Below are positions 10,856 through 55,441 of a stretch of DNA of 55,441 nucleotides, in pieces. Numbering within the stretch: position 1 is the first letter of the stretch; each line of letters opens with the position of its first letter. Origin of the DNA: Patescibacteria group bacterium. GTDB lineage: Bacteria > Patescibacteriota > Patescibacteriia > Patescibacteriales > BS150m-G62. Below the pieces are notes generated by a model, which saw only the letters and a list, made by a program, of their open reading frames with translations, did not search any database and was not told the origin of the DNA. A program made the translations under genes and the position numbers. The stretch is from the NCBI GenBank assembly GCA_016784175.1, contig JADHVC010000003.1, positions 1-55,441 on the forward strand, in the 5' to 3' direction.

Positions 10856-11039
10856 GTAACTACTTGCTATACCTGCATTATTTTTGAGCGCATATGGAAT
10901 ATGTAGTATTTTTTAGCAGAATTTAACTTAAAAAATTTTATGTTTGAGTGAAGCGAGTTTAAAATTTTTGTTATATTGTGCGAAAATTGCCCAATATTCC
11001 ATCCTAAGCGAAAAAGTGATGTAGGTATAGTGAAGTTAC
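10856..11039 (+). repeat. ~189-nt palindromic intergenic repeat, copy 2
   Basis: 184 nt. Starts GTAACTACTTGCTATACCTGCAT and ends ATGTAGGTATAGTGAAGTTAC. It carries small deletions relative to the other copies. It lies between the divergent TPR and permease genes. Confidence 0.9.
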
Positions 11040-13487: not shown

Positions 13488-13572
13488 ATCTCTCCTTTTT
13501 TTTATTGAAATGAGCAGAAATACCTATAAGTAATAATAGTAAATATAAAACTATATGTCAAGCGATTTTCTT

Positions 13573-13761
13573 GTAACTACTCACTATATCTGCATTATTT
13601 TTGAGCGCATATGTAATATGTAGTAATTATTAGCACAATTTAACTTAAAAAAATTTATGTTTGAGTGAAGCGAGTTTAAAATTTTTGTTAAATTGTGCGT
13701 AAAAAAGTGCCCAATATTCCATCCTAAGCGAAAAAGTGATGCAGATGTAGTGAGTGATTAT
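13573..13761 (+). repeat. ~189-nt palindromic intergenic repeat, copy 3
   Basis: Flanked by a perfect 8-bp direct repeat ATTTTCTT (13565-13572 and 13762-13769). Lies between the divergent 13197-13487 gene and ftsW. Confidence 0.92.
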
Positions 13762-13924
13762 ATTTTCTTTATTAAAAGGTCATTTTGCGACCTCTCGCAC
13801 ATCCATATATAAATCGGCAAGCTTATCATGGACTGCTTTATAATGATTTTTCTTTAAGCAAGTGAGGTTATATAAGCAGGTATATTTTCTTTCCACGCCA
13901 GGAACTTTATGATAAAATACAAAT

Positions 13925-23034: not shown

Positions 23035-23079
23035 AATAAATTATGCAAAATGATGCAATAAAATTGAAGATAAATTATT

Positions 23080-23268
23080 GTAACTGCTCACTATATCTGC
23101 ATTATTTTTGAGCGCATATGGAATATGTAGCAATTTTTAGCAGAATTTAACTTAAAAAATTTTATGTTTGAGTGAAGCGAGTTTAAAATTTTTGTTAAAT
23201 TGTGCGTAAAAAATTGCCCAATATTCCATCTTAAGCGAAAAAGTGATGTAGATATAGTGAGCAGTTAC
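23080..23268 (+). repeat. ~189-nt palindromic intergenic repeat, copy 4 (complete reference copy)
   Basis: GTAACTGCTCACTATATCTGCAT ... ATGTAGATATAGTGAGCAGTTAC. Ends 3 nt from the proS stop codon. The flanks AAATTATT and TAATTATA match at 6 of 8 positions. Confidence 0.93.
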
Positions 23269-23271
23269 TAA

Positions 23272-24516
23272 TTATAACTGTAGTTTTTGAACTATCTCAT
23301 CAATATTTACAAATTCAACTTCCCCAGTAGCGCGATTTTTTATCTCAACTAGACCTTTTTCAATATTCTTTTTGCTGACGATAATACGTTTTGTGCAACC
23401 TATTTTATCTGCAAGTGAAAATTTTTCACCAGGTCGACTATCTAGCCTATCATCATACAACACGTCAATTTTCATGTCTAGTAAATTTTGGTAAATCTCC
23501 TCACCTCGAACCTTTACTGACTCATTATCTTGATTAATCAAAATAATATGAACGTTAAATGGTGCAATTTCCTTTGGCCAAATTATACCCTCTTTATCAT
23601 TACTAATTTCAACAACTGTTCCCATAAGCCGACCAAGACCTATACCATAACAACCCATAATAACATCACTTTGCTCACCATTTTGATTAGTAACTTGAAA
23701 GTCAAATGAAGCACTAAATTTATTTTTTAGTTTAAATATATTGCCAACTTCTATGGACTTATGCTTAATAAGCTTTTTTGTTTTGCAATTTGGACAATCA
23801 CTTTGAACATCGATAATCTCCTCATTAATTGCTAGGTTGCATTTATCACAAACATAGATATTGTCCTCGCCAGCTACACAAAGAGTTTGAAATTCATGTG
23901 AAAATTGTGAAAATGAACCACCAGACGCAAAAGTTAAATAAGTAGAGCCAAGGATGCCACATCGTTTGAAAATTCTAAAGTAAGCTTTTTGGACTAATTT
24001 ATAATATTCATTCAAATCTTCTTCATCTAAATGAAAAGAATATAAATCTTTCATCATAAATTCCCGACCACGAAGTATTCCTGATTTAGCTCTTAATTCA
24101 TTTCGAAATTTTGTTTGGAATTGATAAACTTTAGTTGGTAAGTCTTTATAGGAATGTATATGCTTTTGCATTAAAGGAACAACTACTTCTTCATGGGACT
24201 GACCAAGAACCAATTTAGAACCCCCTTTTAATTCAGTATTAAAGAGAACATCAATATCCTGTCTGCCAGTTTGAATGTAATTTTGCAATGGATGTAATGC
24301 TGGCATATAAACCTCCTGACCATCAATATTATTTATTTCTTCACGAATTACATTTTCAATCTTTTTTATAACTCGCAAGCCTAAGGGCAAAAGTGTATAT
24401 ACCCCAGAAAATAGCTTGTCTATAAAGCCAGCTTGAATTAATAGCTGTGCGTTTAAGCTAGTCTCATCGCTTGGCACTTGTTTTAAGGATTTTGTAAAAA
24501 GTTGCGATTGGCGCAT
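23272..24516 (-). CDS. proS: Prolyl-tRNA synthetase, short bacterial-type lacking the INS editing domain
   Basis: N-terminus MRQSQLFTKSLKQVPSDETSLNAQLLIQAGFI and class II motifs (FRNELRAKSGILRGREFMMKD, GCYGIGLGRL). Only 414 aa. CDKC...CPNC (residues 223-244) sits where the ~180-aa INS domain normally lies. Confidence 0.9.
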   Translation of the reverse strand: MRQSQLFTKSLKQVPSDETSLNAQLLIQAGFIDKLFSGVYTLLPLGLRVIKKIENVIREEINNIDGQEVYMPALHPLQNYIQTGRQDIDVLFNTELKGGSKLVLGQSHEEVVVPLMQKHIHSYKDLPTKVYQFQTKFRNELRAKSGILRGREFMMKDLYSFHLDEEDLNEYYKLVQKAYFRIFKRCGILGSTYLTFASGGSFSQFSHEFQTLCVAGEDNIYVCDKCNLAINEEIIDVQSDCPNCKTKKLIKHKSIEVGNIFKLKNKFSASFDFQVTNQNGEQSDVIMGCYGIGLGRLMGTVVEISNDKEGIIWPKEIAPFNVHIILINQDNESVKVRGEEIYQNLLDMKIDVLYDDRLDSRPGEKFSLADKIGCTKRIIVSKKNIEKGLVEIKNRATGEVEFVNIDEIVQKLQL

Positions 24517-25780: not shown

Positions 25781-25884
25781 CGTCTATAACCCCTTTTGTA
25801 AAGAACAATTGATTAATAATGTTATAATAGACAAAAATTAGCATATTTACAAGTCTTGGTAAGTCTCTACTATAAACAAAAAAA

Positions 25885-26074
25885 GCAACTACTCACTATA
25901 TCTGCATTATTTTTGAGCGCATATGGAATATGTAGTAATTTTTAGCAGAATTTAACTTAAAAAAATTTATGTTTGAGTGAAACGAGTTTAAAATTTTTGT
26001 TAAATTGTGCGTAAAAAAATTGCTCAATATTCCATCCTAAGCGAAAAAGTAATGTAGATATAGTAAGTAGTTAC
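25885..26074 (+). repeat. ~189-nt palindromic intergenic repeat, copy 5
   Basis: GCAACTACTCACTATATCTGCAT ... ATGTAGATATAGTAAGTAGTTAC. The flanks CAAAAAAA and TAAAAAAA match at 7 of 8 positions but are low-complexity. Ends 46 nt upstream of the murD ATG. Confidence 0.92.
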
Positions 26075-26120
26075 TAAAAAAATAATTGAAAAAAGTATAC
26101 ATAAGTGGTATTTTTATACT

Positions 26121-33267: not shown

Positions 33268-35316
33268 ATGAATATATTTAGACAAATTTTTTCATCATCA
33301 AAAAAAGTCAAAAACTGGAGACAGATTGTTTTTGTTATTATTTTATTGTGTGGCTCACTGCTAGTTAACTTTGGAGATAAATACAACGATCTAAGTGATA
33401 AATTGAGTGAAAAATCAAATATAAGTATACCAAAAGTTGAGGAGCGAAGTTTTAGACTTGGATTAGACCTGCTCGGGGGAACACACTTGGTCTATAAAGC
33501 CAACATTGATAATATACCAGATACTGATCGAGATAATGCGCTAGAAGGTGTTCGTGATGTAATTGAGCGAAGAGTAAATTTATTTGGTGTAAGTGAACCA
33601 AATGTACAAACAGCAAAGTCTAACGGTGAATACAGGGTTATTGTTGAATTAGCAGGAATTAATGATGTTAACGAAGCAATTAGCTTAATAGGAGAAACGC
33701 CTTTATTAGAATTTAAAGAAGCGAGCGACGAAGCTCGACAATTAGGAGACGAAGAAAAGGCAATATTAGAAAACTACAACATAGAGGCAGAAAAAGGAAT
33801 AAATGAAGCTTTGGAAGAATTAGTTGATAGTGATTTTGAAGATCTCGTATTAAAATATTCTCAAGATGAAGCTACAAAAGAAAATAAGGGTAATATTGGG
33901 TGGATAACAGCCTCAAGTCACCCAGAGATTATAAACGCGATTAGCGAGCTAGAGCTAGGTGCAGTAACAAAAAATTACATAACTAGTCAATCTGGCTTTG
34001 AAATATATAAACTACTTGAAAAGCGCATTAAGACAAATCCATTCGATGAAAATAAGGAAGAAAAACAAGTACTAGCATCACATATATTAATCTGTCACAA
34101 AGACAGTGAAAGCTGTGAAAGTGAATTAAGCAAGGAAGAGGCTTATGCTAAAATTAAAGAAGTAAAGACTAAAGTAACAGCAGAAAATTTTAATGAATTA
34201 GCTAAAGTTTACTCAGACGAACCTGGTGCTGACCAAACAGGGGGTAATTTAGGCTGGTTTGAAAGAGGAAGGATGATAAAACCTTTTGAGGATACAGTCT
34301 TTAATAACCAAAAAGTTGGTGAAATTTCCTATGTCGTTGAAACAAAATTTGGGTATCATCTAATTCTAAAACATGACGAAAAAAACATTGAAGAATATAA
34401 TATTTCACGCATTTTAATAAGAACAATGAGTGAGCAAAGTATTGTTGGTGTTGGAAATACTTGGAAAAATACAAAATTAGGTGGTAAATATCTAAAAAGG
34501 GCAGCTGTACAATTTGATTACAATGACAACTCTCCAGAAGTAACATTGGAGTTTGATCAAGAAGGTTCAGATTTATTTGCTGAAATTACAGAAAGAAATA
34601 TTGGTAAGCAAGTAGCCATATTCCTCGACGGCTACCCAATTAGCGCACCAGTTGTAAATTCAAAAATAACAGGAGGTCAGGCTGTAATTAGTGGAAATTT
34701 TGATATAAAAGAAGCAAATCTATTGACTCAAAGATTAAATGCAGGTGCATTGCCAGTTCCAATCTCATTAATTAGTCAAAAAACAATTGGAGCTAGTTTG
34801 GGTCAAGATTCTATGCAGAAAAGTCTAAAAGCAGGTATATTTGGATTAATTGCAGTTGCAATATTCATGGTATTTATTTATCGGTTACCTGGCATACTCG
34901 CAGTTGTATCATTATTAATATACGGCTTACTAATGTTAGCGATATTTAAACTTTGGCCAATAACATTAACATTGTCTGGACTAGCTGGGTTTATACTATC
35001 TATTGGTATGGCGGTGGATGCCAATATTTTAATCTTTGAGAGGCTAAAAGAAGAATTAAATTCTGGTCACGCACTAAGCACTGCCATAGACAATGGGTTT
35101 AAAAGAGCTTGGCCATCAATAAGGGACGGTAATATTTCAACGCTATTAACTTGTTTTATACTAATCCAGTTTACAACAAGTGTAGTGATGGGCTTCGCCT
35201 TAACTTTAGCATTAGGTGTTATAGTATCAATATTCTCTGCTGTAATTATTACTAAAAACTTATTAGTGATGGTAAGTGGCGCAGAGCTTTTTAAAAAAAA
35301 TAAATTCTGGTTATAA
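33268..35316 (+). CDS. secD: Protein translocase subunit SecD with inserted parvulin-type PPIase domain(s)
   Basis: SecD P1 motifs (LGLDLLGGTHLVY, RRVNLFGVSEPNVQ, GETPLLEF, VAIFLDGYPISAPVV, the LPVP loop) and the C-terminal 6-TM SecD/F domain. Residues ~268-370 show parvulin signatures (ASHILI, GGNLGWF, FGYHLI). Confidence 0.9.
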   Translation: MNIFRQIFSSSKKVKNWRQIVFVIILLCGSLLVNFGDKYNDLSDKLSEKSNISIPKVEERSFRLGLDLLGGTHLVYKANIDNIPDTDRDNALEGVRDVIERRVNLFGVSEPNVQTAKSNGEYRVIVELAGINDVNEAISLIGETPLLEFKEASDEARQLGDEEKAILENYNIEAEKGINEALEELVDSDFEDLVLKYSQDEATKENKGNIGWITASSHPEIINAISELELGAVTKNYITSQSGFEIYKLLEKRIKTNPFDENKEEKQVLASHILICHKDSESCESELSKEEAYAKIKEVKTKVTAENFNELAKVYSDEPGADQTGGNLGWFERGRMIKPFEDTVFNNQKVGEISYVVETKFGYHLILKHDEKNIEEYNISRILIRTMSEQSIVGVGNTWKNTKLGGKYLKRAAVQFDYNDNSPEVTLEFDQEGSDLFAEITERNIGKQVAIFLDGYPISAPVVNSKITGGQAVISGNFDIKEANLLTQRLNAGALPVPISLISQKTIGASLGQDSMQKSLKAGIFGLIAVAIFMVFIYRLPGILAVVSLLIYGLLMLAIFKLWPITLTLSGLAGFILSIGMAVDANILIFERLKEELNSGHALSTAIDNGFKRAWPSIRDGNISTLLTCFILIQFTTSVVMGFALTLALGVIVSIFSAVIITKNLLVMVSGAELFKKNKFWL

Positions 35317-43449: not shown

Positions 43450-43710
43450 TTCCCTTATAAATTGTTAATGAACGATAACACTTTATATAAAGACTACATC
43501 ATGTAGTATTTTTTTTCAATCCCTACGGTAAAGTACTGATAACCAATCAAAATAACCCAAAGAATAAAACTATTTTTCATACCAGTCTCGTATCCATCTA
43601 ACTATATCCACAAAAAGTGTTTACTCAAAAGAATACGCACTCTATTTGTAATGCAATAAAAAAAAGTAGTTAGGGATACCGAACACACAAAAATACGCAC
43701 TACTTAAATG

Positions 43711-43899
43711 CTAACTGCTCACTATGTCTGCATTATTTTTGAGCGCATATGGAATATGTAGTAATTTTTCGCAGAATTTAACTTAAAAAATTTTATGTTT
43801 GAGTGAAGCGAGTTTAAAATTTTTGTTAAATTGTGCATAAAAAATTGCCCAATATTCCATCCCAAGCGAAAAAGTGATGCAGACATAGTGAGCAGTTAC
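43711..43899 (+). repeat. ~189-nt palindromic intergenic repeat, copy 6
   Basis: Flanked by a perfect 8-bp direct repeat CTTAAATG (43703-43710 and 43900-43907). The terminal arms CTAACTGCTCACTATGTCTGCAT and ATGCAGACATAGTGAGCAGTTAC pair at 22 of 23 positions. Confidence 0.93.
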
Positions 43900-43984
43900 C
43901 TTAAATGCTATTGTTTTTTTTAGTAAATATGATTTACTATAATGAATCGCAATGTTCTTTAAATATACTTAAAAGGAGAAACGG

Positions 43985-44449: not shown

Positions 44450-44469
44450 TATAACACCAATAATCCCAA

Positions 44470-44499
44470 GGCTCAACATTCATTTGTTGGGCTTTTTTC
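44470..44499 (+). terminator. Rho-independent terminator after the asparaginase-like gene
   Basis: Stem GGCTCAAC (44470-44477) / GTTGGGCT (44486-44493) with two G-T pairs, followed by TTTTTTC. Confidence 0.6.
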
Positions 44500-44669
44500 T
44501 TGAACCAAATCGCCACTCTTATGCGGGAAATTAGCTAGGTTCAACCTGATTGGTCCTTGATAAACTGAACTGGTAGGTTAACGAAAAGTTAAGCCACTAA
44601 AATTTGCAAAATTTCAATAAAAATAGTATCATATATTATTCATTTAAAATTTGTAATTTTTAGTAAAAT

Positions 44670-44780
44670 ATGGATAATCCAACAATAAGCTCAAAAAAGA
44701 AAAAAAGCTACACACCAGAGTTTAAATTAAAGTTAGCAATTGAAGCAAATGAACTACCCCGCAGCAAGCTGACGGGGTAG
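44670..44780 (+). pseudogene. IS3-family transposase OrfA N-terminal fragment
   Basis: My translation gives MDNPTISSKKKKSYTPEFKLKLAIEANELPRSKLTG-stop. YTPEFKLKLAIEA matches the HTH start of IS3/IS911-type OrfA. It is cut off after 36 codons. Confidence 0.5.
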
Positions 44781-44783
44781 TTC
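44751..44783. other. GC-rich perfect hairpin at the junction of two mobile-gene fragments
   Basis: GAACTACCCCG (44751-44761) / CGGGGTAGTTC (44773-44783) form an 11 perfect bp stem. The loop CAGCAAGCTGA can extend the stem by CAG/CTG. Confidence 0.6.
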
Positions 44784-44791
44784 ATTTTGAT

Positions 44792-45235
44792 ATGAGGGCG
44801 GATAATGAAATATCAAAAGAACAATACGCAAAAAAGAAAAAAATTATTGAAAACAACATTAACCATTATTAATCGCTAATAGAAAAACTGGAAAATGAAA
44901 AAAAAGAACAAAAAGAAAAAAACATTAAATATTTTGAATTTGCTACTAATTTAAAGAAAAAGTTTGAAAATGGTACGCCGGAACTTAAAAAAAGAATTGC
45001 TTTAAATTTAGGTTCAAACCTGTCAATAAAGGATAGAAAAGCCCATTTTTGCTTAGACTTTCCTTTACGACCCTTTGAAAAGTATGCTCCAAGAGTAAAG
45101 CAAGAAATATCTATGGTTCAAACCAATGAAAAACCTTTGTTTAAAACACAAAACACCTCTTTGCAAGGTGCTTGTATCAGTATGCAGAGGCTAGTAGACG
45201 TTATTAGAACTGAGATTATGAATAATTTAAACTAA
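44792..45235 (+). pseudogene. C-terminal remnant of a large serine recombinase, with an in-frame stop
   Basis: Frame reads ...EISKEQYAKKKKIIENNINHY-TAA-SLIEKLENEKKEQ...FEFATNLKKKFENGTPELKKRIALNLGSNLSIKDRKAHFCLDFPLRPFEK.... The F.FA...F..G..E.KK.I...LGSNL.L.D.K pattern resembles the tails of recombinase-family proteins. The catalytic N-terminal domain is absent. Confidence 0.5.
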
Positions 45236-45304
45236 ATTTCCTACGACTATATAATAACATAGTCCTTAATCTTAAAAATTTCTTTTTCTGAATTTACCAA
45301 ATTA

Positions 45305-45722
45305 TTATTTTGATAAACTCGGAAAAGGAGGGATTGTAGCGGTATACAATCCCATAATGATAATCACCGAAAAATCCGCTTCGGTCCAGTTGTTGTCAGC
45401 TGAGGTTTTTTCGAACCTCATCAAGGGCAGACTGCATAGCAATCCGATCTTCCACGGAAGGGCCACAACCGCTGACATCATCTTCATCTTCAAAAAAAGG
45501 ATACTTCCCGAAAACAGCCTTTCCATCTTTGCTGATTCCACCATGGAGATACTCTTCACCGCCGTCTATTCCGACAACGAGGTTGTCTTTAGGAGCGGAG
45601 GCCCACAGAGTTTGGGTTGCCCCTCCCTCTAAATGAACGATACTGGTTTCGTAGACCAACACTTGATGGTCATGTTTTTTTCCGCCCTTATTAATCGTGT
45701 CCCACACCAACTGACTCTTCAT
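45305..45722 (-). pseudogene. High-GC hypothetical gene disrupted by a frameshift at a homopolymer
   Basis: ATG at 45722 with the SD GGGGGAGA upstream. The 108-aa frame stops at 45396, and a -1 shift (dropping one base) at the A6/T6 run (45406-45411) continues into the 84-aa-ORF frame down to 45305. Local GC is visibly far above the window background. Confidence 0.5.
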
Positions 45723-46038
45723 GCCATTTTTCTCCCCCGTTTATTCGACTGGCGAGGAGCTCTAATAATAAAGTTAAACTTCTGAGTACTAGCTTTAGTT
45801 GTAACAATTAAATTACATCCAAGGCTAGTACCCAGAAAACAACAACTGAATTTTAAAGAACAATTCTCTTTGTCTTTTACAAAGAGATAATTAAATACAA
45901 AAGTGAATTGAATTCTTATATTTAATTATCTTTTTGGAATTAATCGTGATGTTATCTTAACATATTATATTAATAATGTCAATAGCATTAGACAATAATC
46001 ACTACTGTCCGGTAGAAATTTTGGCGAAGCCAAAATTG

Positions 46039-46764
46039 TTACCAAAAACTTTGCTGTGGATTTTCTTCTGGTTTGAATTTAATAATTGTTTTTGTGTCTA
46101 GCGAGAGCATATCAATTAGACTCCTCCTAAACATTATCGTTTCTTTAATCATCCTTGTTAGCGTTAACAGTGATTTTTTAAATTTTGTTTGAAATTTAAT
46201 ATAGGCTAATAATAAATAATAAATCATCGCTATCCAAATTTGCGTCATTACTGCATTTTTACTTGTTCCTAGGAATGTTTTGATTTTCAAATTCTGCTTA
46301 ATCCATTTAAAGAAAATTTCTATCTGCCATCTGTCTTTATAAATACCAGCAATTTGCAGAGCTGTAAGTGTGAAATTGTTTGTTAAATATATATACTCTT
46401 TTTTTGTTTCTTCGTCATAATATTTAATTCTTCTTAGCTTTTTCGGATACTTTTCATATTTCATTGTCATATAATCGCCAAAAATCACTATTTCATCGGC
46501 TATTACGCCTTTTTCTAATGTTTTTTTATGCTGTCCGACAACAAAGATATTTTGGTTACTTTTAGCTCTTGAAACAAAAGTAATTTCTTTTTTATCTAAT
46601 TCTTTCCACCATTCATAATCAATGTAGGCTCTATCAAAAACCAATATGCTACCTTTCTCAATATTTAAAATCATTTGCTTTATGGCTGTGATATCAGCAA
46701 CATTACCTTCGGTAATGTTCAATAACTCTGGTATTGTTGTGCGGTTATTCAGTAATGTGTTCAA
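46039..46764 (-). mobile_element. IS4-family DDE transposase, 5'-truncated remnant
   Basis: The Y-(2)-R-(3)-E-(6)-K signature is present in YKDRWQIEIFFKWIK, along with the DRAY second-Asp motif. The frame is open for only 8 codons upstream of the TTG at 46764, so the N-terminal domain and first catalytic Asp are missing. Confidence 0.75.
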
Positions 46765-47013
46765 TCCAATAGCAAGGCCAAGATTTGTTTAATTGAGAAT
46801 ACGCAAAAAAAATCGCATTCAGCTCATGAAGTGATCTCTCAGTGTTTTTCCCATGATCATGTGAGCAAAATTGCTAATGGAGAAATGTTATTTTTCGAAA
46901 CAATCTACGGGAAAGATGCAGAAAAAGAATGTTCGAAAAAAAATATAACTCACAGCAGCGTAAAAAAATAATCAAAACGAAGTATCAAGGAGCAAATATT
47001 ATCCATAGTTACG

Positions 47014-47049
47014 CCAGTGATCCACACTAAACGTGGACACTGGTTTTTT
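47014..47049 (+). terminator. Orphan terminator-like hairpin following a gene 3' fragment
   Basis: CCAGTGATCCAC (47014-47025) / GTGGACACTGG (47033-47043), an imperfect stem followed by TTTTTTC. Confidence 0.45.
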
Positions 47050-47165
47050 CTTTGTTGAAAATTTTATGCATTGCCTTGTATTCGGTATTCTTAAATAATT
47101 AATTTACAAGTGGGTTATTATCTTGAAGTAAAAAAACAGGCTAAAATTAACCCATTTTTTATCCG

Positions 47166-47236
47166 CAGGGGTGGCAGGAATCGAACCCACGCTAGAGGTT
47201 TTGGAGACCCCTGTACTACCACTATACGACACCCCC
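47166..47236 (-). tRNA. trnW: tRNA-Trp (anticodon CCA)
   Basis: Hand-folded cloverleaf on the - strand: acceptor GGGGGTG/CACCCCT (G1-U72), U8, D-arm GTAT-AGTGGTA-GTAC, anticodon arm GGGGT-CTCCAAA-ACCTC, 4-nt variable loop, T-arm GTGGG-TTCGATT-CCTGC, discriminator G. CCA is not encoded. Resembles E. coli tRNA-Trp. Confidence 0.88.
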
Positions 47237-47365
47237 CCCTTAAATATTTACTAAATATAACTAATTTATTCACCCTCAATTGAATTACCAGGACAATAAC
47301 AAGAAATTACAGATCCTCAAGGTGAAACAAATATCTACAGTTATCATTAAATTAAAAATAGCAAA

Positions 47366-47400
47366 TATAAAACCACTAGTCCAGTGCTATAAACTAGCGG
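47366..47400 (-). terminator. Terminator after rpmG
   Basis: On the - strand, stem CCGCTAGT / ACTAGTGG (47393-47400 / 47373-47380 on +), followed by TTTTATATTT. Confidence 0.55.
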
Positions 47401-47423
47401 CTTACAATAAAATTCAAAAATAA

Positions 47424-47579
47424 CTATTTTGTTTCCTTGTGATCTGCGTGAGTAGAACAAAACTTACAAAATTTCTTCAAAATTAGTCTCTGCTTTAATG
47501 TTTTTTTATTTTTCTTAGAATTATAATTTACCCGTTTGCAAAGTGTGCATTCGAGCTTAATCATATTATCTTGACTCAT
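47424..47579 (-). CDS. rpmG: 50S ribosomal protein L33 (absent from the ORF track, 51 aa)
   Basis: My translation gives MSQDNMIKLECTLCKRVNYNSKKNKKTLKQRLILKKFCKFCSTHADHKETK. This shows the canonical L33 pattern C..C...NY...KNKK...RL.LKKFC..C..H..HKETK. Confidence 0.88.
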   Translation of the reverse strand: MSQDNMIKLECTLCKRVNYNSKKNKKTLKQRLILKKFCKFCSTHADHKETK

Positions 47580-47753
47580 ATTTTCAAATATTACAATTAA
47601 TTAAACAATAACTCCATTAAACCATGCTTAACACAAAATATCAAGAGCTTTAACAAAAATAGTGACGCGATGGATATTCATCTAACATATCCACTTCTAT
47701 ATAATTAAAAAAAACTGTATAATAGAATACATAATATGTAATTTTATAAAAAA

Positions 47754-52184: not shown

Positions 52185-53870
52185 TTAGAATCTTGCCTTT
52201 GCTTTACGAAAGGGCATTTTTTTTCTATCTGTTCTTTTACTAAAACCCACTCTACCACTTCTTTTAAAACTTACCTTGCTATCTGCTTTTGTGATAAAAA
52301 TTTTCTGTCCTTTAAACATAACCCCATTTAAAAATCTAAGTACTGTGGCCTCTGACTTTCTTTCAGTTGAAAAAAGAGAGTTCTCTTGCATCAGATTTAT
52401 TCTTCCAATCTCAATACCTTTTAAATTCCTGTTTGTATTGATTAATCTGAAGAATGCTTGAATGTCAAAGCCATGCTTCTTACCAATATTTATCTTAAAA
52501 TTTATTTCATCTACAATAACTTTTCTTTCAACAACTGCTTTCCCTACTGCATTTAAATTTCGATTATTTTTATTTTCAGCAAGAAGACTACTAAATCTAT
52601 GCGCCACAAAGCGCTTAATTAAATCTTCCTTTTTAATACTTTTTAATCTTTCCGTAAACTCTACAAAATATGGCTCGGTACCAAAATCCTTAATATCAGC
52701 TACTTCAACTTCTGCAATATAACTTTCAATTTGCTTTTTGCACACCTCGCCACCATTCGGAACTTGCTTTAACTCAATCTTCTTACCGATCATAGTCTCT
52801 AGTCTTTTAATTTTTCCAACTTCTCTTGGGTTTATAATCGAAATAGAAACGCCAATATTTTGTGCCCTTCCTGTTCTTCCGCTTCTGTGAGTATAAGCTT
52901 CACTTTGGTCTGGAAGACTATAATTTATAACATGCGTTAAATTGTTTACATCGATTCCTCTAGCCGCCACATCTGTAGCAATTAACAAATGAACAAGTTT
53001 TCGCTTAAAACGATCCATGATTTTTGTTCTTATTTGTTGAGAAATTTCACCATGTAGAGCTTCCGCATTATAGTTAGCCAACTTCAACTTATCCGCTACT
53101 TCTTGAGTTTCTATTCTGGTGCGACAAAAAAGAATTCCATAGACACCTGGTAAATGGTCAAGTAGTCTTCTTAAAACTTCAAAGCGATCAGCCGGCTGAA
53201 CAACATAGTACTCATGACTAACATTGTCGGCACCTTTATTTTTTTCACCTAGACTCATCTCCTCAGCATCACCCATGTATTTTTTTGCAATTGAATGAAC
53301 ACTCTTTGACATTGTAGCTGAAAAAAGCAAAGTTTGCTTTGTGTCTGGTGTTTGCTCTAAAATAGCATCTAGATCATCTTTAAATCCCATGTCCAACATT
53401 TCATCAGCCTCATCTATCACTAACCATTTAATCGATTGTAGTTTTAAAACCTTTCTTCGAATTAAATCGTGCACACGACCAGGCGTGCCAACTACAATAT
53501 TCGTGCCATTCCTTAATGACCGAATTTGAGAATCAATCCGCTCTCCACCATAAACAGGGGTGACCGAAATTCCCTTTGAATACTTACTATATTTTTTAAT
53601 ATCTTGAAAAATCTGAATACAGAGCTCTCTTGTCGGACAAAGAACTATTGTCTGTAATTCTCTTTCATTCGATTTTATTTGATTTAAAATCGGTAAACCA
53701 TAAGCAGCTGTTTTCCCAGTGCCAGTTTGAGCCAAAGCGATTAAATGTTTTGTTGATTGTAATATGAAGGGGATAGCTTTTGCTTGCACCGGTGAAGGTT
53801 CCACAAAACCCAAGTTATCAAGACTTTTTAATATTTCAGTATTCAAACCAAGTTCTTTAAATGTTGTCAT
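52185..53870 (-). CDS. DEAD-box ATP-dependent RNA helicase with a DbpA/CsdA-type C-terminal RNA-binding extension
   Basis: Q motif, AQTGTGKT, PTRELC, VIDEADEML (DEAD), SAT, HRSGRTGRA. The C-terminal ~180 aa include INIGKKHGFD...IGRINL and a basic tail. Confidence 0.93.
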   Translation of the reverse strand: MTTFKELGLNTEILKSLDNLGFVEPSPVQAKAIPFILQSTKHLIALAQTGTGKTAAYGLPILNQIKSNERELQTIVLCPTRELCIQIFQDIKKYSKYSKGISVTPVYGGERIDSQIRSLRNGTNIVVGTPGRVHDLIRRKVLKLQSIKWLVIDEADEMLDMGFKDDLDAILEQTPDTKQTLLFSATMSKSVHSIAKKYMGDAEEMSLGEKNKGADNVSHEYYVVQPADRFEVLRRLLDHLPGVYGILFCRTRIETQEVADKLKLANYNAEALHGEISQQIRTKIMDRFKRKLVHLLIATDVAARGIDVNNLTHVINYSLPDQSEAYTHRSGRTGRAQNIGVSISIINPREVGKIKRLETMIGKKIELKQVPNGGEVCKKQIESYIAEVEVADIKDFGTEPYFVEFTERLKSIKKEDLIKRFVAHRFSSLLAENKNNRNLNAVGKAVVERKVIVDEINFKINIGKKHGFDIQAFFRLINTNRNLKGIEIGRINLMQENSLFSTERKSEATVLRFLNGVMFKGQKIFITKADSKVSFKRSGRVGFSKRTDRKKMPFRKAKARF

Positions 53871-53933: not shown

Positions 53934-55136
53934 TTATTTTTTGTCAAAATGTCTGCCATGATTGCTTCTATTTGGCGCAACATAGCGTGGCTTTTCTCTT
54001 GCTATTGGAAGTATTGGAAGGTCTACTAGAGTTAAGGTCTTACGAATAAGTTGTTCAATTTTTTTAACATCATATTTTTCGGTAGGAGCAACAAATGAAA
54101 TAGCCTTGCCACAACGACCTGCTCGTCCAGTTCTACCAATTCGATGAACATAATCATCCAGATTATCTGGTAAGTCAAAATTTATTACCAACGATATACT
54201 TTTTACATCAATTCCACGAGCTGCAATATCAGTCGCTACCATTATACGAAATTTTCCATTTGTAAATCCTTCGAGAGCTGCTTGCCTTTGAGACTGAGAA
54301 CGATTCGAATGAATTTCGGTAGCAGTGTGCCCCATATTTCGAATATCACGAGCAATATGCTTCGCACCATGTTTAGTTCTGGAAAAGATAAGAACTACAT
54401 CATCATTGTATTGTTGTAATAGAGAATCAAGTAATCGCGTTTTTTCATTTTTAACGACAACAAATATCTCTTGCTCTACATTTTCAGCTGATGTTCCCTG
54501 AGGGGCAATTTCTATTCGGAGTGGTAGTTTCATAAAAGCACTTGCGAGAGCTGCAATTGTTTTCGGCATAGTCGCCGAAAATAACATTGTTTGTCGCTCT
54601 TTCGGTGCAGTTTGTAAGATACGTTTAATTTGAGGTAAAAAACCTACATCAAGCATACGATCCGCCTCATCAAGAGCAATATAATTTACACGTTTTAGTG
54701 AATATTCTCCTTGGTTCATTAAATCAACCAAACGCCCAGGAGTTGCTATTACAATGTGCGGGTTACGTCTTAGTTCTCTTACTTGCGGTATTTTTGAAGT
54801 ACCTCCAATAACAACAACGCAGCGTAACCCCAATGGAGTACCTATTTGTTTTAAAGATTCCTCAACTTGGATAGCAAGCTCACGAGTCGGAACCAAAATT
54901 AAACCTTGCCCCTTATAAAGAGCAATGCGTTGTATCATAGGAATTCCGAAAGCAAGAGTCTTGCCCGTACCTGTTTGAGCAATACCAACAATATCTTTGC
55001 CTTGTAAGGCACCAGGAATTACCTGATGCTGTATTGGCGTTGGAGTTTCGAACCCCATTTTAGTTAAAACAGAGAGAAAATTATCTCCGATCCCAAGGTC
55101 TCTAAAACTACCAGTATTTATTACTTTTTGTGTCAT
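53934..55136 (-). CDS. DEAD-box ATP-dependent RNA helicase (RhlE-like)
   Basis: AQTGTGKT, PTRELA, LDEADRML, SAT, HRIGRTGRAG. Start set at MTQKVINTGSF (55136); the ORF-track start is 55187. Confidence 0.93.
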   Translation of the reverse strand: MTQKVINTGSFRDLGIGDNFLSVLTKMGFETPTPIQHQVIPGALQGKDIVGIAQTGTGKTLAFGIPMIQRIALYKGQGLILVPTRELAIQVEESLKQIGTPLGLRCVVVIGGTSKIPQVRELRRNPHIVIATPGRLVDLMNQGEYSLKRVNYIALDEADRMLDVGFLPQIKRILQTAPKERQTMLFSATMPKTIAALASAFMKLPLRIEIAPQGTSAENVEQEIFVVVKNEKTRLLDSLLQQYNDDVVLIFSRTKHGAKHIARDIRNMGHTATEIHSNRSQSQRQAALEGFTNGKFRIMVATDIAARGIDVKSISLVINFDLPDNLDDYVHRIGRTGRAGRCGKAISFVAPTEKYDVKKIEQLIRKTLTLVDLPILPIAREKPRYVAPNRSNHGRHFDKK

Positions 55137-55287
55137 AAAATTTTTTGCCCACCTAATCTTCAAGGTCAAGCTACTAAAATGACACAAAATAAAGAGTTGA
55201 GCTACCCTAAGAATTATCTCAAGGCTTATTATTTAATTTATAGGATAAGTATATCAGAAAAATTATATTTTGTCAAGCATAAGGCAA

Positions 55288-55441
55288 GTAACTTCATTAT
55301 ATCTGCATTATTTTTGAGCGCATATGGAATATGTAGTAATTTTTAGCACAATTTAACTTAAAAAATTTTATGTTTGAGTGAAGCGAGTTTAAAATTTTTG
55401 TTAAATTGTGCGTAAAAAATTGCCCAATATTCCATCCTAAG
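55288..55441 (+). repeat. ~189-nt palindromic intergenic repeat, copy 7 (right part cut by window edge)
   Basis: Starts GTAACTTCATTATATCTGCATTATTTTTGAGCGCATATGG and runs to the last base of the window. Lies upstream of the helicase gene. Confidence 0.9.

Follow-up and report, generated by a model that had tools for sequence, protein, structure and literature searches.

A 55,441-nucleotide (nt) stretch of the genome of a Patescibacteria group bacterium (contig JADHVC010000003.1, positions 1–55,441; hereafter, the window) carries a family of palindromic repeats of ~189 nt, whose focal copy lies at positions 23080–23268. The repeat is a non-coding, non-autonomous transposable element of the miniature inverted-repeat type (MITE), a reading based on the 8-bp duplications that flank it and on its GTAAC...GTTAC ends. 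Taken alone, the window family would be a further MITE; what is new is the tip of its hairpin, a module of ~22 nt that recurs in at least about a dozen bacterial phyla and from whose centre conservation falls off outward. The module is possibly the signature of an unrecognized class of hairpin elements. MITEs are usually viewed as stripped-down insertion sequences (ISs) that are recognized by their ends and belong to a single clade, whereas here the hairpin tip is the most constrained part. In our judgment, the chances are about even that the repeat is a foldback MITE of a cross-phylum superfamily, defined by a strand-specific apex that must become single-stranded for the element to propagate.

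Seven copies were recovered in the window by end matching, repeat finding and alignment, at exactly the positions reported in an earlier reading of the bare sequence (the original prediction). Five are complete (184–190 nt) and two are clipped by the window ends; their summed length is 1252 nt, or 2.3% of the window. Copy 1 (1–157) has lost its 5' part to the window start; 127 nt separate it from the stop codon of an hsp20 gene (284–748, − strand), beyond which it lies. Copy 2 (10856–11039, 184 nt), the most diverged, separates divergent genes for a TPR protein and a CitMHS transporter, and copy 3 (13573–13761, 189 nt) lies upstream of ftsW/rodA. The focal copy 4 (23080–23268, 189 nt) is placed 3 nt from the hisS stop codon and 45 nt from the mreB start codon, both genes being on the − strand. 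Copy 5 (25885–26074, 190 nt) is found between a divergent beta-lactamase-fold gene and murD, and copy 6 (43711–43899, 189 nt) between divergent GGDEF-EAL and asparaginase-like genes. Copy 7 (55288–55441), clipped in its 3' part by the window end, is upstream of a DEAD-box helicase gene (53934–55187, − strand). Three copies (2, 5 and 6) are thus located between divergently transcribed genes. All seven lie on the + strand (two-sided p ~0.016 if orientation were random), and they are dispersed among unrelated housekeeping genes. Every copy falls between open reading frames (ORFs) and no ORF is conserved across copies, in agreement with the earlier description of the family as wholly intergenic.

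The element terminates in GTAAC...GTTAC, with 23-nt inverted ends that differ at 0–3 positions; in copy 4, these are GTAACTGCTCACTATATCTGCAT (23080–23102, +) and ATGTAGATATAGTGAGCAGTTAC (23246–23268, +). The sequence GTAACTGCTCACTATATCTGCAT has eight matches in the window at three or fewer mismatches, compared with none in 100 shuffled sequences. Repeat finding returned families of 5–6 copies with ungapped identities of 67–100%, and the multiple alignment of copies has a mean column identity of 83% with a long invariant centre. Conservation among the window copies peaks at this centre and is lowest at the ends.

Direct duplications of 8 bp flank four of the five complete copies at their exact boundaries, which were set by the consensus ends. 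They are perfect around copy 3 (ATTTTCTT at 13565–13572 and 13762–13769, 8/8) and copy 6 (CTTAAATG at 43703–43710 and 43900–43907, 8/8), and imperfect around copy 5 (CAAAAAAA at 25877–25884 and TAAAAAAA at 26075–26082, 7/8) and copy 4 (AAATTATT at 23072–23079 and TAATTATA at 23269–23276, 6/8), where the right-hand octamer overlaps the hisS stop codon. Copy 2 has no recognizable target duplication. Among 20,000 random positions, each tested in 49 registers, the best match reached 8/8 in 0.3% and at least 7/8 in 3.6%. The repeat was therefore inserted by an 8-bp staggered cut. From what is generally known of such duplications, the cutting enzyme would be a DDE transposase acting in trans. The assignment to MITE-type elements, proposed originally on sequence architecture, is borne out by the inverted ends, the duplications and the lack of a conserved ORF, and the generic features of MITEs, apart from an identified parent, are present: a length below ~500 bp, no coding capacity, terminal inverted repeats, a fixed-length duplication and dispersed copies (seven in 55 kb).

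Elements sharing the apex module in other bacteria also bear traces of insertion. In a family from a metagenome-assembled genome (MAG) labeled 'Neisseria', one copy is flanked by an 8-bp duplication, TTTATAAT, recognized by eye. In Fusobacterium animalis (NZ_CP077186.1, ~131.1–131.4 kb; locus L183, 46117–46428), one hairpin element is nested inside another, having entered ~60 nt from the left end of the host copy, near its centre. The F. animalis copy between trmFO and topA (L183, 24722–24905) is also present in F. vincentii (NZ_CP084075.1, ~1,345,632–1,346,680), with 95% identity over 1 kb; its occupation of an orthologous site in two species indicates that some insertions are older than the species split. 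A search for empty sites between these two species gave no clean case, one locus being filled in both and the other rearranged.

The original prediction had described each copy as one long imperfect palindrome able to form a hairpin of roughly 85 bp, and folding of the focal copy agrees with this. The RNA of its + strand folds at −84.5 kcal/mol (z = −13.3; 0 of 200 shuffled sequences were as stable) and that of its − strand at −65 kcal/mol, and with DNA parameters the two strands give −48.1 and −44.9 kcal/mol, respectively. The minimum-energy fold contains the paired 23-nt ends, the blocks ATGGAATAT/ATATTCCAT and GAATTTAAC/GTTAAATT and the A/T block pairings, so that all the blocks named at the outset are paired. 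A 3-nt bulge, TTA (23152–23154, +), interrupts the 5' arm of copy 4 10 bp below the apex module, at a position corresponding to the CGTWAAG internal loop of other families. At the apex itself, the thermodynamic folds pair GUUU with AARC, a pairing that breaks in several variants.

The apex 20-mer TGTTTGAGTGAARCGAGTTT occurs at 99 or more loci in a set of bacterial genomes comprising one genome per species (596 Gb), where by our own estimate, which assumes uniform base composition, ~2 matches to the pattern would be expected by chance. Among the matches listed, to which the following host records also refer, ~90 carry complementary arms, so that a long imperfect hairpin has the 20-mer precisely as its tip. 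About six have no flanking complementarity (Acinetobacter, Lactobacillus jensenii, a Caulobacterales MAG, a Pseudolysobacter MAG, an archaeon and a Zambryskibacteria MAG) and are probably chance occurrences. The hosts comprise Lachnospiraceae, several Clostridium species, Finegoldia magna, Tissierella and Alkaliphilus among the Firmicutes; Fusobacterium and Psychrilyobacter among the Fusobacteriota; many Bacteroidota; Campylobacterota; gamma- and betaproteobacterial MAGs, Desulfobacterota, Nitrospirales, Elusimicrobiaceae, Gastranaerophilales, Cloacimonadota and Neomarinimicrobiota; and, from the candidate phyla, Nomurabacteria, Gracilibacteria and Saccharibacteria. It is the apex alone that the repeat has in common with these other bacteria.

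Within single genomes, the entire unit of 160–290 nt repeats, outer ends included. Twelve loci were found in one Lachnospiraceae MAG, six in the 'Neisseria' MAG and six on one Clostridiaceae contig; in Fusobacterium, at least 40 places were found in the 2.1-Mb F. vincentii record and 14 in the 219-kb F. animalis record. Between families, the arms are unrelated: when the window element was compared with all loci by BLAST, only its positions 73–117 aligned, and only 2 nt outside the module, mean pairwise identity between families has already sunk to 0.27, the value expected from composition. The contigs of the IMG/VR phage collection contained no apex match, and a search of a plasmid collection with the full element aligned only the apex, in three records. 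Two records that PLSDB labels as plasmids, NZ_CP084075.1 (2.1 Mb) and NZ_CP077186.1 (219 kb), appear to be chromosomal replicons or assembly pieces; the former is chromosome-sized with a single annotated feature, and the latter bears the core genes topA, uvrC, ftsY, trmFO and dprA. Composite repeats in Gastranaerophilales (L002, 1000–1186; L008, 1259–1448; L018, 7492–7679) consist of two opposed apex modules ~150 nt apart, the second of which has a different capping stem (GC-AATA-GC, GC-GATA-GC and GC-GTAA-GC).

The shared module can be written as A-(Y)-UGUUUGA-[G-Y-(3–4-nt loop)-R-C]-GAGUUU and is numbered here T1 G2 T3 T4 T5 G6 A7 G8 Y9 (loop) R13 C14 G15 A16 G17 T18 T19 T20. In copy 4, the invariant core is TGTTTGAGTGAAGCGAGTTT (23165–23184, +), in which G8–C14 and U9–G13 form a capping stem around the loop GAA. 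A relaxed search of the collected loci yielded the centre variants TGAAR, CGAAG, CGCAG, CGTAG, CAATAG, CGATAG, CGTAAG, CTAAAG, TGCTAA, TATCG, TCTTG and TCTCG, each of which permits G8–C14 and Y9–R13 pairing around a 3–4-nt loop. Fusobacterium subfamilies additionally show A8–U14, a change on both sides of the pair, as well as G8·U14 and longer capping stems (CTAAC/GTTAG and GCCAAC/GTTGGC). The module is closed by a nearly invariant A–U pair, and the 5' side of its internal loop is ~3 nt longer than the 3' side. A second asymmetric loop is found in 11 of 66 families, where CGTWAAG precedes the module by ~19 nt on the left and TTTAGS follows it after 7 nt on the right.

A covariance model seeded from 26 families, none of them from the window, matched exactly the seven copies in the window (42–50 bits, E-values of 1e-7 to 1e-9), the next match scoring 19 bits. 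All seven matches lie on the + strand: those in copies 1 (43–83), 2 (10930–10970), 4 (23154–23194), 6 (43785–43825) and 7 (55360–55400) score 49.6 bits each, that in copy 3 (13647–13687) 41.9 bits, and that in copy 5 (25959–25999), an A variant reading TGAAAC, 42.1 bits. The collected loci gave 117 matches, 97 of them distinct. Across the distinct matches, the flanking helix is 91% paired, compared with 58% after shuffling and 32–53% with slid partners, and each of its 11 pairs varies at both partners; these pairing percentages lean toward structure, because the seeds were selected for pairing and the alignment was fitted to the model, whereas the slid-partner control and the independent window matches are free of this bias. 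The capping pair 8–14 is G–C in 95 of 95 cases, and pair 9–13 is U–A in 56, U–G in 31 and C–G in 8, with no unpaired and no C–A combinations.

Judging from the consensus, G6·A16 and A7·G15 would form tandem sheared pairs, followed by U5·G17 and U·U pairs. The context 5'-YGAR-3' favors sheared G·A pairs, and both strands of the module read 5'-YGAR-3'. The occurrence of U–G but never C–A, together with G·A pairs that are possible on one strand only, indicates that one particular strand matters. Many capping loops (GAA, GCA, GTA, GATA and GCTA) belong to the GNA/GNNA type, which is characteristic of stable mini-hairpins in DNA, unlike the GNRA loops of RNA. Such loops fit a DNA form; an RNA form accords just as well with the frequent U–G pair. 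Flanked by its closing G and C, the CGAAG variant gives GCGAAGC, one of the d(GCGNAGC) mini-hairpins, which are very stable as DNA.

This last likeness raises the question of convergence, in which an ordinary lineage-specific MITE would have arrived independently at a very stable hairpin-nucleating sequence. The capping stem GCGAAGC/GYGAARC falls in that stable class, 5'-YGAR-3' contexts suit sheared pairs, and the same heptamer occurs in the F–G intergenic region of phage phiX174 (L182, 2259–2419), where single-strand initiation takes place and which contains CCGAAGCGG and GCGAAGCGCGG and has only GCGAAGC in common with the module. However, 15 flanking positions (UGUUUGA, GAGUUU and the closing A–U pair) are identical in GC-rich Nitrospirales and AT-rich Fusobacterium, while the capping loop, which stability should constrain most, is what varies; the CGTWAAG/TTTAGS subgroup moreover points to nested relatedness among families. 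We regard physical convergence as very unlikely.

Outside the module, the arms vary in sequence and remain complementary. In one Lachnospiraceae genome, stem blocks differ between copies and stay complementary within each, as in gatgc/gcatc, tattc/gaata, aagtc/gactt and whole outer segments. Copies of the Lachnospiraceae MAG STD2_216 (L014, L026, L027, L030, L037, L038, L066, L076, L096 and L097) have a common inner part of ~150 nt, in which 5-nt inner blocks vary, and variable outer stem segments of 30–35 nt, both complementary within a copy. The outer base of these elements resembles a bidirectional terminator, with an A-run, GGCTGTCGCAC...GTGCGACAGCC and a T-run. Outer stems in Fusobacterium likewise vary between copies while remaining complementary within a copy. 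A conserved tip, unconserved ends and complementary arms imply either selection for single-stranded pairing or templated correction from arm to arm.

The same pattern could be produced if the true mobile unit were an apex hairpin of only ~40–60 nt that enters pre-existing hairpin tips or grows by fold-back copying, the arms being secondary and lineage-specific. The outward decay of conservation would then follow naturally, as would the Lachnospiraceae and Fusobacterium outer stems, which are variable yet complementary and end in terminator-like bases with A-runs and T-runs. In one Clostridiaceae genome, the inner 18 bp are all that subfamilies have in common, and the nested Fusobacterium copy was inserted near the centre of another. 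Against such a unit, the window duplications flank the full 189-nt element and not the apex, whole units of 180–290 nt repeat within genomes with their outer ends, neither arms without an apex nor a bare apex in a non-palindromic context was seen, and armless matches are as few as chance predicts. On this evidence, a mobile apex hairpin is improbable.

Strong covariation and the multi-hairpin composites of Gastranaerophilales would also be expected of a multicopy family of structured non-coding RNA genes. The copies, however, are bounded by target-site duplications, lack a consistent promoter or orientation, and are scattered by the dozen per genome between unrelated genes; we give this explanation hardly any weight.

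The orientation of the module (M) relative to its flanking genes bears on whether it acts as RNA. Orientation is near random, with 25 loci of the type −M−, 21 of +M−, 16 of +M+ and 11 of −M+, and in a Fusobacterium region with nearly all genes on one strand, copies are present in both orientations. A role tied to the direction of read-through transcription is therefore unlikely, and the same-strand arrangement of the seven window copies is either due to chance or local. Around copy 4, no promoter or terminator consensus was found above chance. We nevertheless considered that the apex might be a dispersed cis-acting signal for RNA processing, stability or termination, or a binding site of a conserved RNA-binding protein or RNase, kept by the host and merely delivered by MITE-like spread. 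The greater stability of the + strand RNA fold (−84.5 versus −65 kcal/mol), the common U–G and absent C–A in the capping stem, the recurrence of asymmetric internal loops at fixed distances, the position of copy 4 within a likely hisS–mreB transcript and the fact that Correia and ERIC elements are RNase substrates all speak for such a role. Yet transcription of copy 4 would yield the motif in antisense, orientation is mixed even where genes are not, promoter and terminator signals do not exceed chance, many capping loops are of the type usual in stable DNA mini-hairpins, and no Rfam family matches. An RNA signal is accordingly a rather unlikely explanation in our view. With moderate confidence, we take the module to be a cis-acting feature of the element's own propagation and not a host regulatory site; its fold would nucleate or mark the hairpin while the element is single-stranded or extruded.

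We return to the foldback element with a strand-specific apex, for which the following course of events can be proposed. A transposase supplied in trans would insert the ~189-bp element by an 8-bp staggered cut. The superfamily would be defined by its ~22-nt apex module and not by its termini, with arms evolving freely as long as they stay complementary; arms that behave in this way suggest that the element passes through, or acts in, a single-stranded hairpin form. On the strand reading TGTTTGAG...CGAGTTT, the apex would form a short capped stem resting on tandem G·A pairs and a U/T-rich asymmetric loop, and this fold may serve in cis to allow folding or extrusion of the palindrome and its recognition during mobilization, either by the mobilizing enzyme or by a conserved host factor. 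Once inserted, a copy would give every transcript running through it a very stable hairpin, and neighboring genes might be affected incidentally. A bolder proposal, to which we attach only tentative belief, is that the module marks a previously unrecognized, horizontally spreading class of hairpin elements across most bacterial phyla, candidate-phyla lineages included, whose functional and heritable core is a strand-specific folded loop read by a universal factor or by the mobilizing enzyme. If so, the arms and termini would serve as interchangeable adaptors, and the logic that usually governs transposon ends would be turned around.

Several results weigh against the foldback-MITE reading. No autonomous IS with the same ends was found in the window or in 1.5 Mb of collected loci, and the sole transposase gene of the window is an N-terminally truncated IS4-family remnant (46039–46764, − strand). 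Across 58 families, clustering of 1,376 neighboring ORFs all against all and a Pfam scan of the 96 ORFs within 500 nt of a module revealed no protein family that recurs beside the module. Two families only have yielded target duplications, and two Fusobacterium copies showed none. The covariation statistic is partly circular, given seeds chosen for pairing; the thermodynamic folds prefer the GUUU/AARC pairing over the tandem G·A fold read from the sequence; and in the long arms, G–T mismatches exceed A–C mismatches only weakly (143 versus 102). Mixed orientation speaks against a fixed RNA role without revealing a DNA role. Finally, ordinary MITEs conserve their ends and not their centre, and we know of no precedent for a transposase that reads a hairpin apex.

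Candidate mobilizing enzymes were examined individually. The IS4-family remnant, which matches positions 141–331 of 332 in the NCBIfam profile transpos_IS4_1 and whose upstream part, likely degraded, extends to ~47100, sits in a gene-poor stretch (44450–47750); it has no similarity to the hairpin repeat and was rejected as its parent. No HUH transposase was present among the window genes or the neighbors of the module. A 1.8-kb IS in the Clostridiaceae MAG MFD01299 (L022, 5872–7684), located ~100 nt from a hairpin copy, encodes a 507-amino-acid transposase that combines Zn ribbons with a DDE domain of the IS240 type; its inverted ends of 13 bp read GATAGTGTAAAGT, and the 8 bp GTGAATTT are duplicated around it. 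These ends bear no relation to the repeat, and this Zn-ribbon DDE IS was the only one detected by a tblastn search with an approximate Tnp26 query. The outer ends of some Fusobacterium and Lachnospiraceae elements resemble the IS6-type end CTGTTGCAAA, but as a common terminus this sequence was found in only 1 of 65 families, no better than shuffled patterns. IS66-family ends, which begin with GTAA and are accompanied by an 8-bp duplication, resemble the window element in both respects. The IS66-like and IS6-like ends are leads based on resemblance, not assignments. Separately, in a single case from a Proteobacteria MAG, an IS110-family transposase gene (DEDD_Tnp_IS110 plus Transposase_20; L001, 706–1845, +) lies ~370 nt from a module; some IS110-family members target palindromic repeats.

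Comparison with known families agrees with the original remark that the sequence was not recognized as a Correia, ERIC, RUP or RPE element. At gathering thresholds, Rfam 15 identified only a tRNA in the window; at permissive thresholds, in the window and 26 loci, only generic hairpin (miRNA-precursor) models fell on the elements, and in 18 loci from other taxa nothing fell on the apex. Literature searches by sequence string, using the DNA and RNA core and its variants, matched only primers and small interfering RNAs, and searches by concept, covering stem-loop families, a 50-genome non-coding RNA survey and a 2024 MITE review, produced no description of the module.

Correia elements (CREE/NEMIS) are likewise short non-coding MITEs with terminal inverted repeats that are abundant between genes and form hairpins in transcripts. 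They are confined to Neisseria, have 26-bp ends, duplicate TA and contain a functional integration host factor site near their centre, whereas the window element has an 8-bp duplication, a whole-length palindrome and a centre common to many phyla. It was excluded from this family by the duplication and by its ends, GTAACTGCTCAC..., which appear unlike the Correia end. ERIC/IRU, RUP, RPE and bcr1 resemble the repeat in being dispersed non-coding imperfect palindromes of ~100–190 nt with no known parent element, but their sequences do not match it and each is confined to one clade, in contrast to an apex spanning at least ~12 phyla. For ERIC/IRU, an apex-centred 60-mer had no match in 5,426 complete Escherichia coli genomes, where ERIC resides.

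REP sequences and REPINs, mobilized in trans by RAYT proteins (IS200/IS605-type HUH enzymes), are also hairpin repeats with compensating changes that imply a single-stranded intermediate. REPINs conserve their two inverted REP ends, tagged GTAG/CGTC, and leave the loop free; they duplicate no target sequence, and a RAYT gene accompanies them. The window element was set apart from them by its target duplication, its conserved apex in place of conserved ends and the lack of an HUH gene nearby. Palindromes derived from IS200/IS605 (PATEs) insert 3' of a fixed tetra- or pentanucleotide without target duplication and were dismissed because 8-bp duplications of unrelated sequence are present instead. 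MITEs derived from DDE ISs that duplicate 8 bp (IS66, IS6, ISL3, IS256 and IS1595) share the duplication length and the short inverted ends, but no such transposase is linked to the hairpin elements, and a conserved centre is not a feature of theirs.

Parallels are also found among sites that function as folded single strands. Integron attC sites are defined by a folded strand with strand-specific features and a mostly free stem sequence; they differ in conserving the hairpin base (R and L boxes) and extrahelical bases, in being recombined by an integrase at a fixed platform, and in being neither dispersed nor flanked by target duplications. The n' site of phiX174 and plasmid ssoA, with its conserved loop hexamer, are long imperfect one-strand hairpins with a short conserved sequence near the loop, yet they are single-copy parts of replicons, not dispersed repeats, and phiX174 shares only the 7-nt mini-hairpin. 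Several structural motifs were rejected for the apex. A kink-turn requires a 3-nt bulge directly 5' of tandem G·A pairs and a Watson–Crick pair that closes the C stem; inspection of the consensus shows that three U residues would part the extra 5' nucleotides from the G·A pairs and that the −1 position would be G·G. A hammerhead ribozyme, suggested by UGAG...CGA, has the core CUGANGA...GAAA...UH around a three-way junction, whereas UGUUUGA...GAGUUU lies in an unbranched hairpin, and no Rfam hammerhead model matched. Readings as a tetraloop receptor (CCUAAG/UAUGG), a mini-ORF (NTG TTT GAG TGA) or a promoter were dropped on inspection.

If the module is a recognition site, a protein or mechanism common to all its hosts, or carried between them, is implied; if its action is physical, nature would have supplied in it a portable nucleator of hairpins or cruciforms. 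The 20-mer or the covariance model offers a simple probe for annotating this repeat class, which reaches dozens of copies in Fusobacterium genomes, and whose long hairpins will have consequences for assembly, for transcription and for the processing of mRNA.

No module is present in 700 kb of sequence from close relatives of the window organism, their best histidyl-tRNA synthetase (HisRS) match being 60% identical; among JGI metagenomes, the HisRS sequences most similar to that of the window derive from groundwater and sediment and are only 50–60% identical. The same HisRS as that of the window is encoded on one ENA and one Logan metagenome contig, and the organism is uncultured.

The remaining content of the window is largely housekeeping in nature, with hsp20, grpE and hrcA; atpG, atpD and atpC; secDF, recO and pheT; and hisS, a tail-specific protease gene and pyrG. 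Genes for cell wall and shape comprise ftsW, murG, murC, murB, the PBP2 gene, mreB, mreC and murD, and the window further encodes a GGDEF-EAL protein, a radical-SAM methylthiotransferase and two DEAD-box helicases. The helicase genes are adjacent (52185–53870 and 53934–55187, both − strand), the first encoding a DbpA RNA-binding domain. The SecD homolog (33268–35316, +) is an unusual fusion in which a PpiC-type peptidyl-prolyl isomerase (rotamase) domain (residues ~260–369) is inserted between the SecD P1 subdomains. The gene for tRNA-Trp(CCA) (47165–47236, − strand) adjoins a 51-amino-acid ORF (47424–47579, − strand) with two CxxC pairs that by eye resembles ribosomal protein L33. Downstream of the asparaginase-like gene, an inverted repeat (44747–44787) whose perfect 15-bp arms, AAATGAACTACCCCG and CGGGGTAGTTCATTT, are separated by 11 nt is probably a terminator hairpin.

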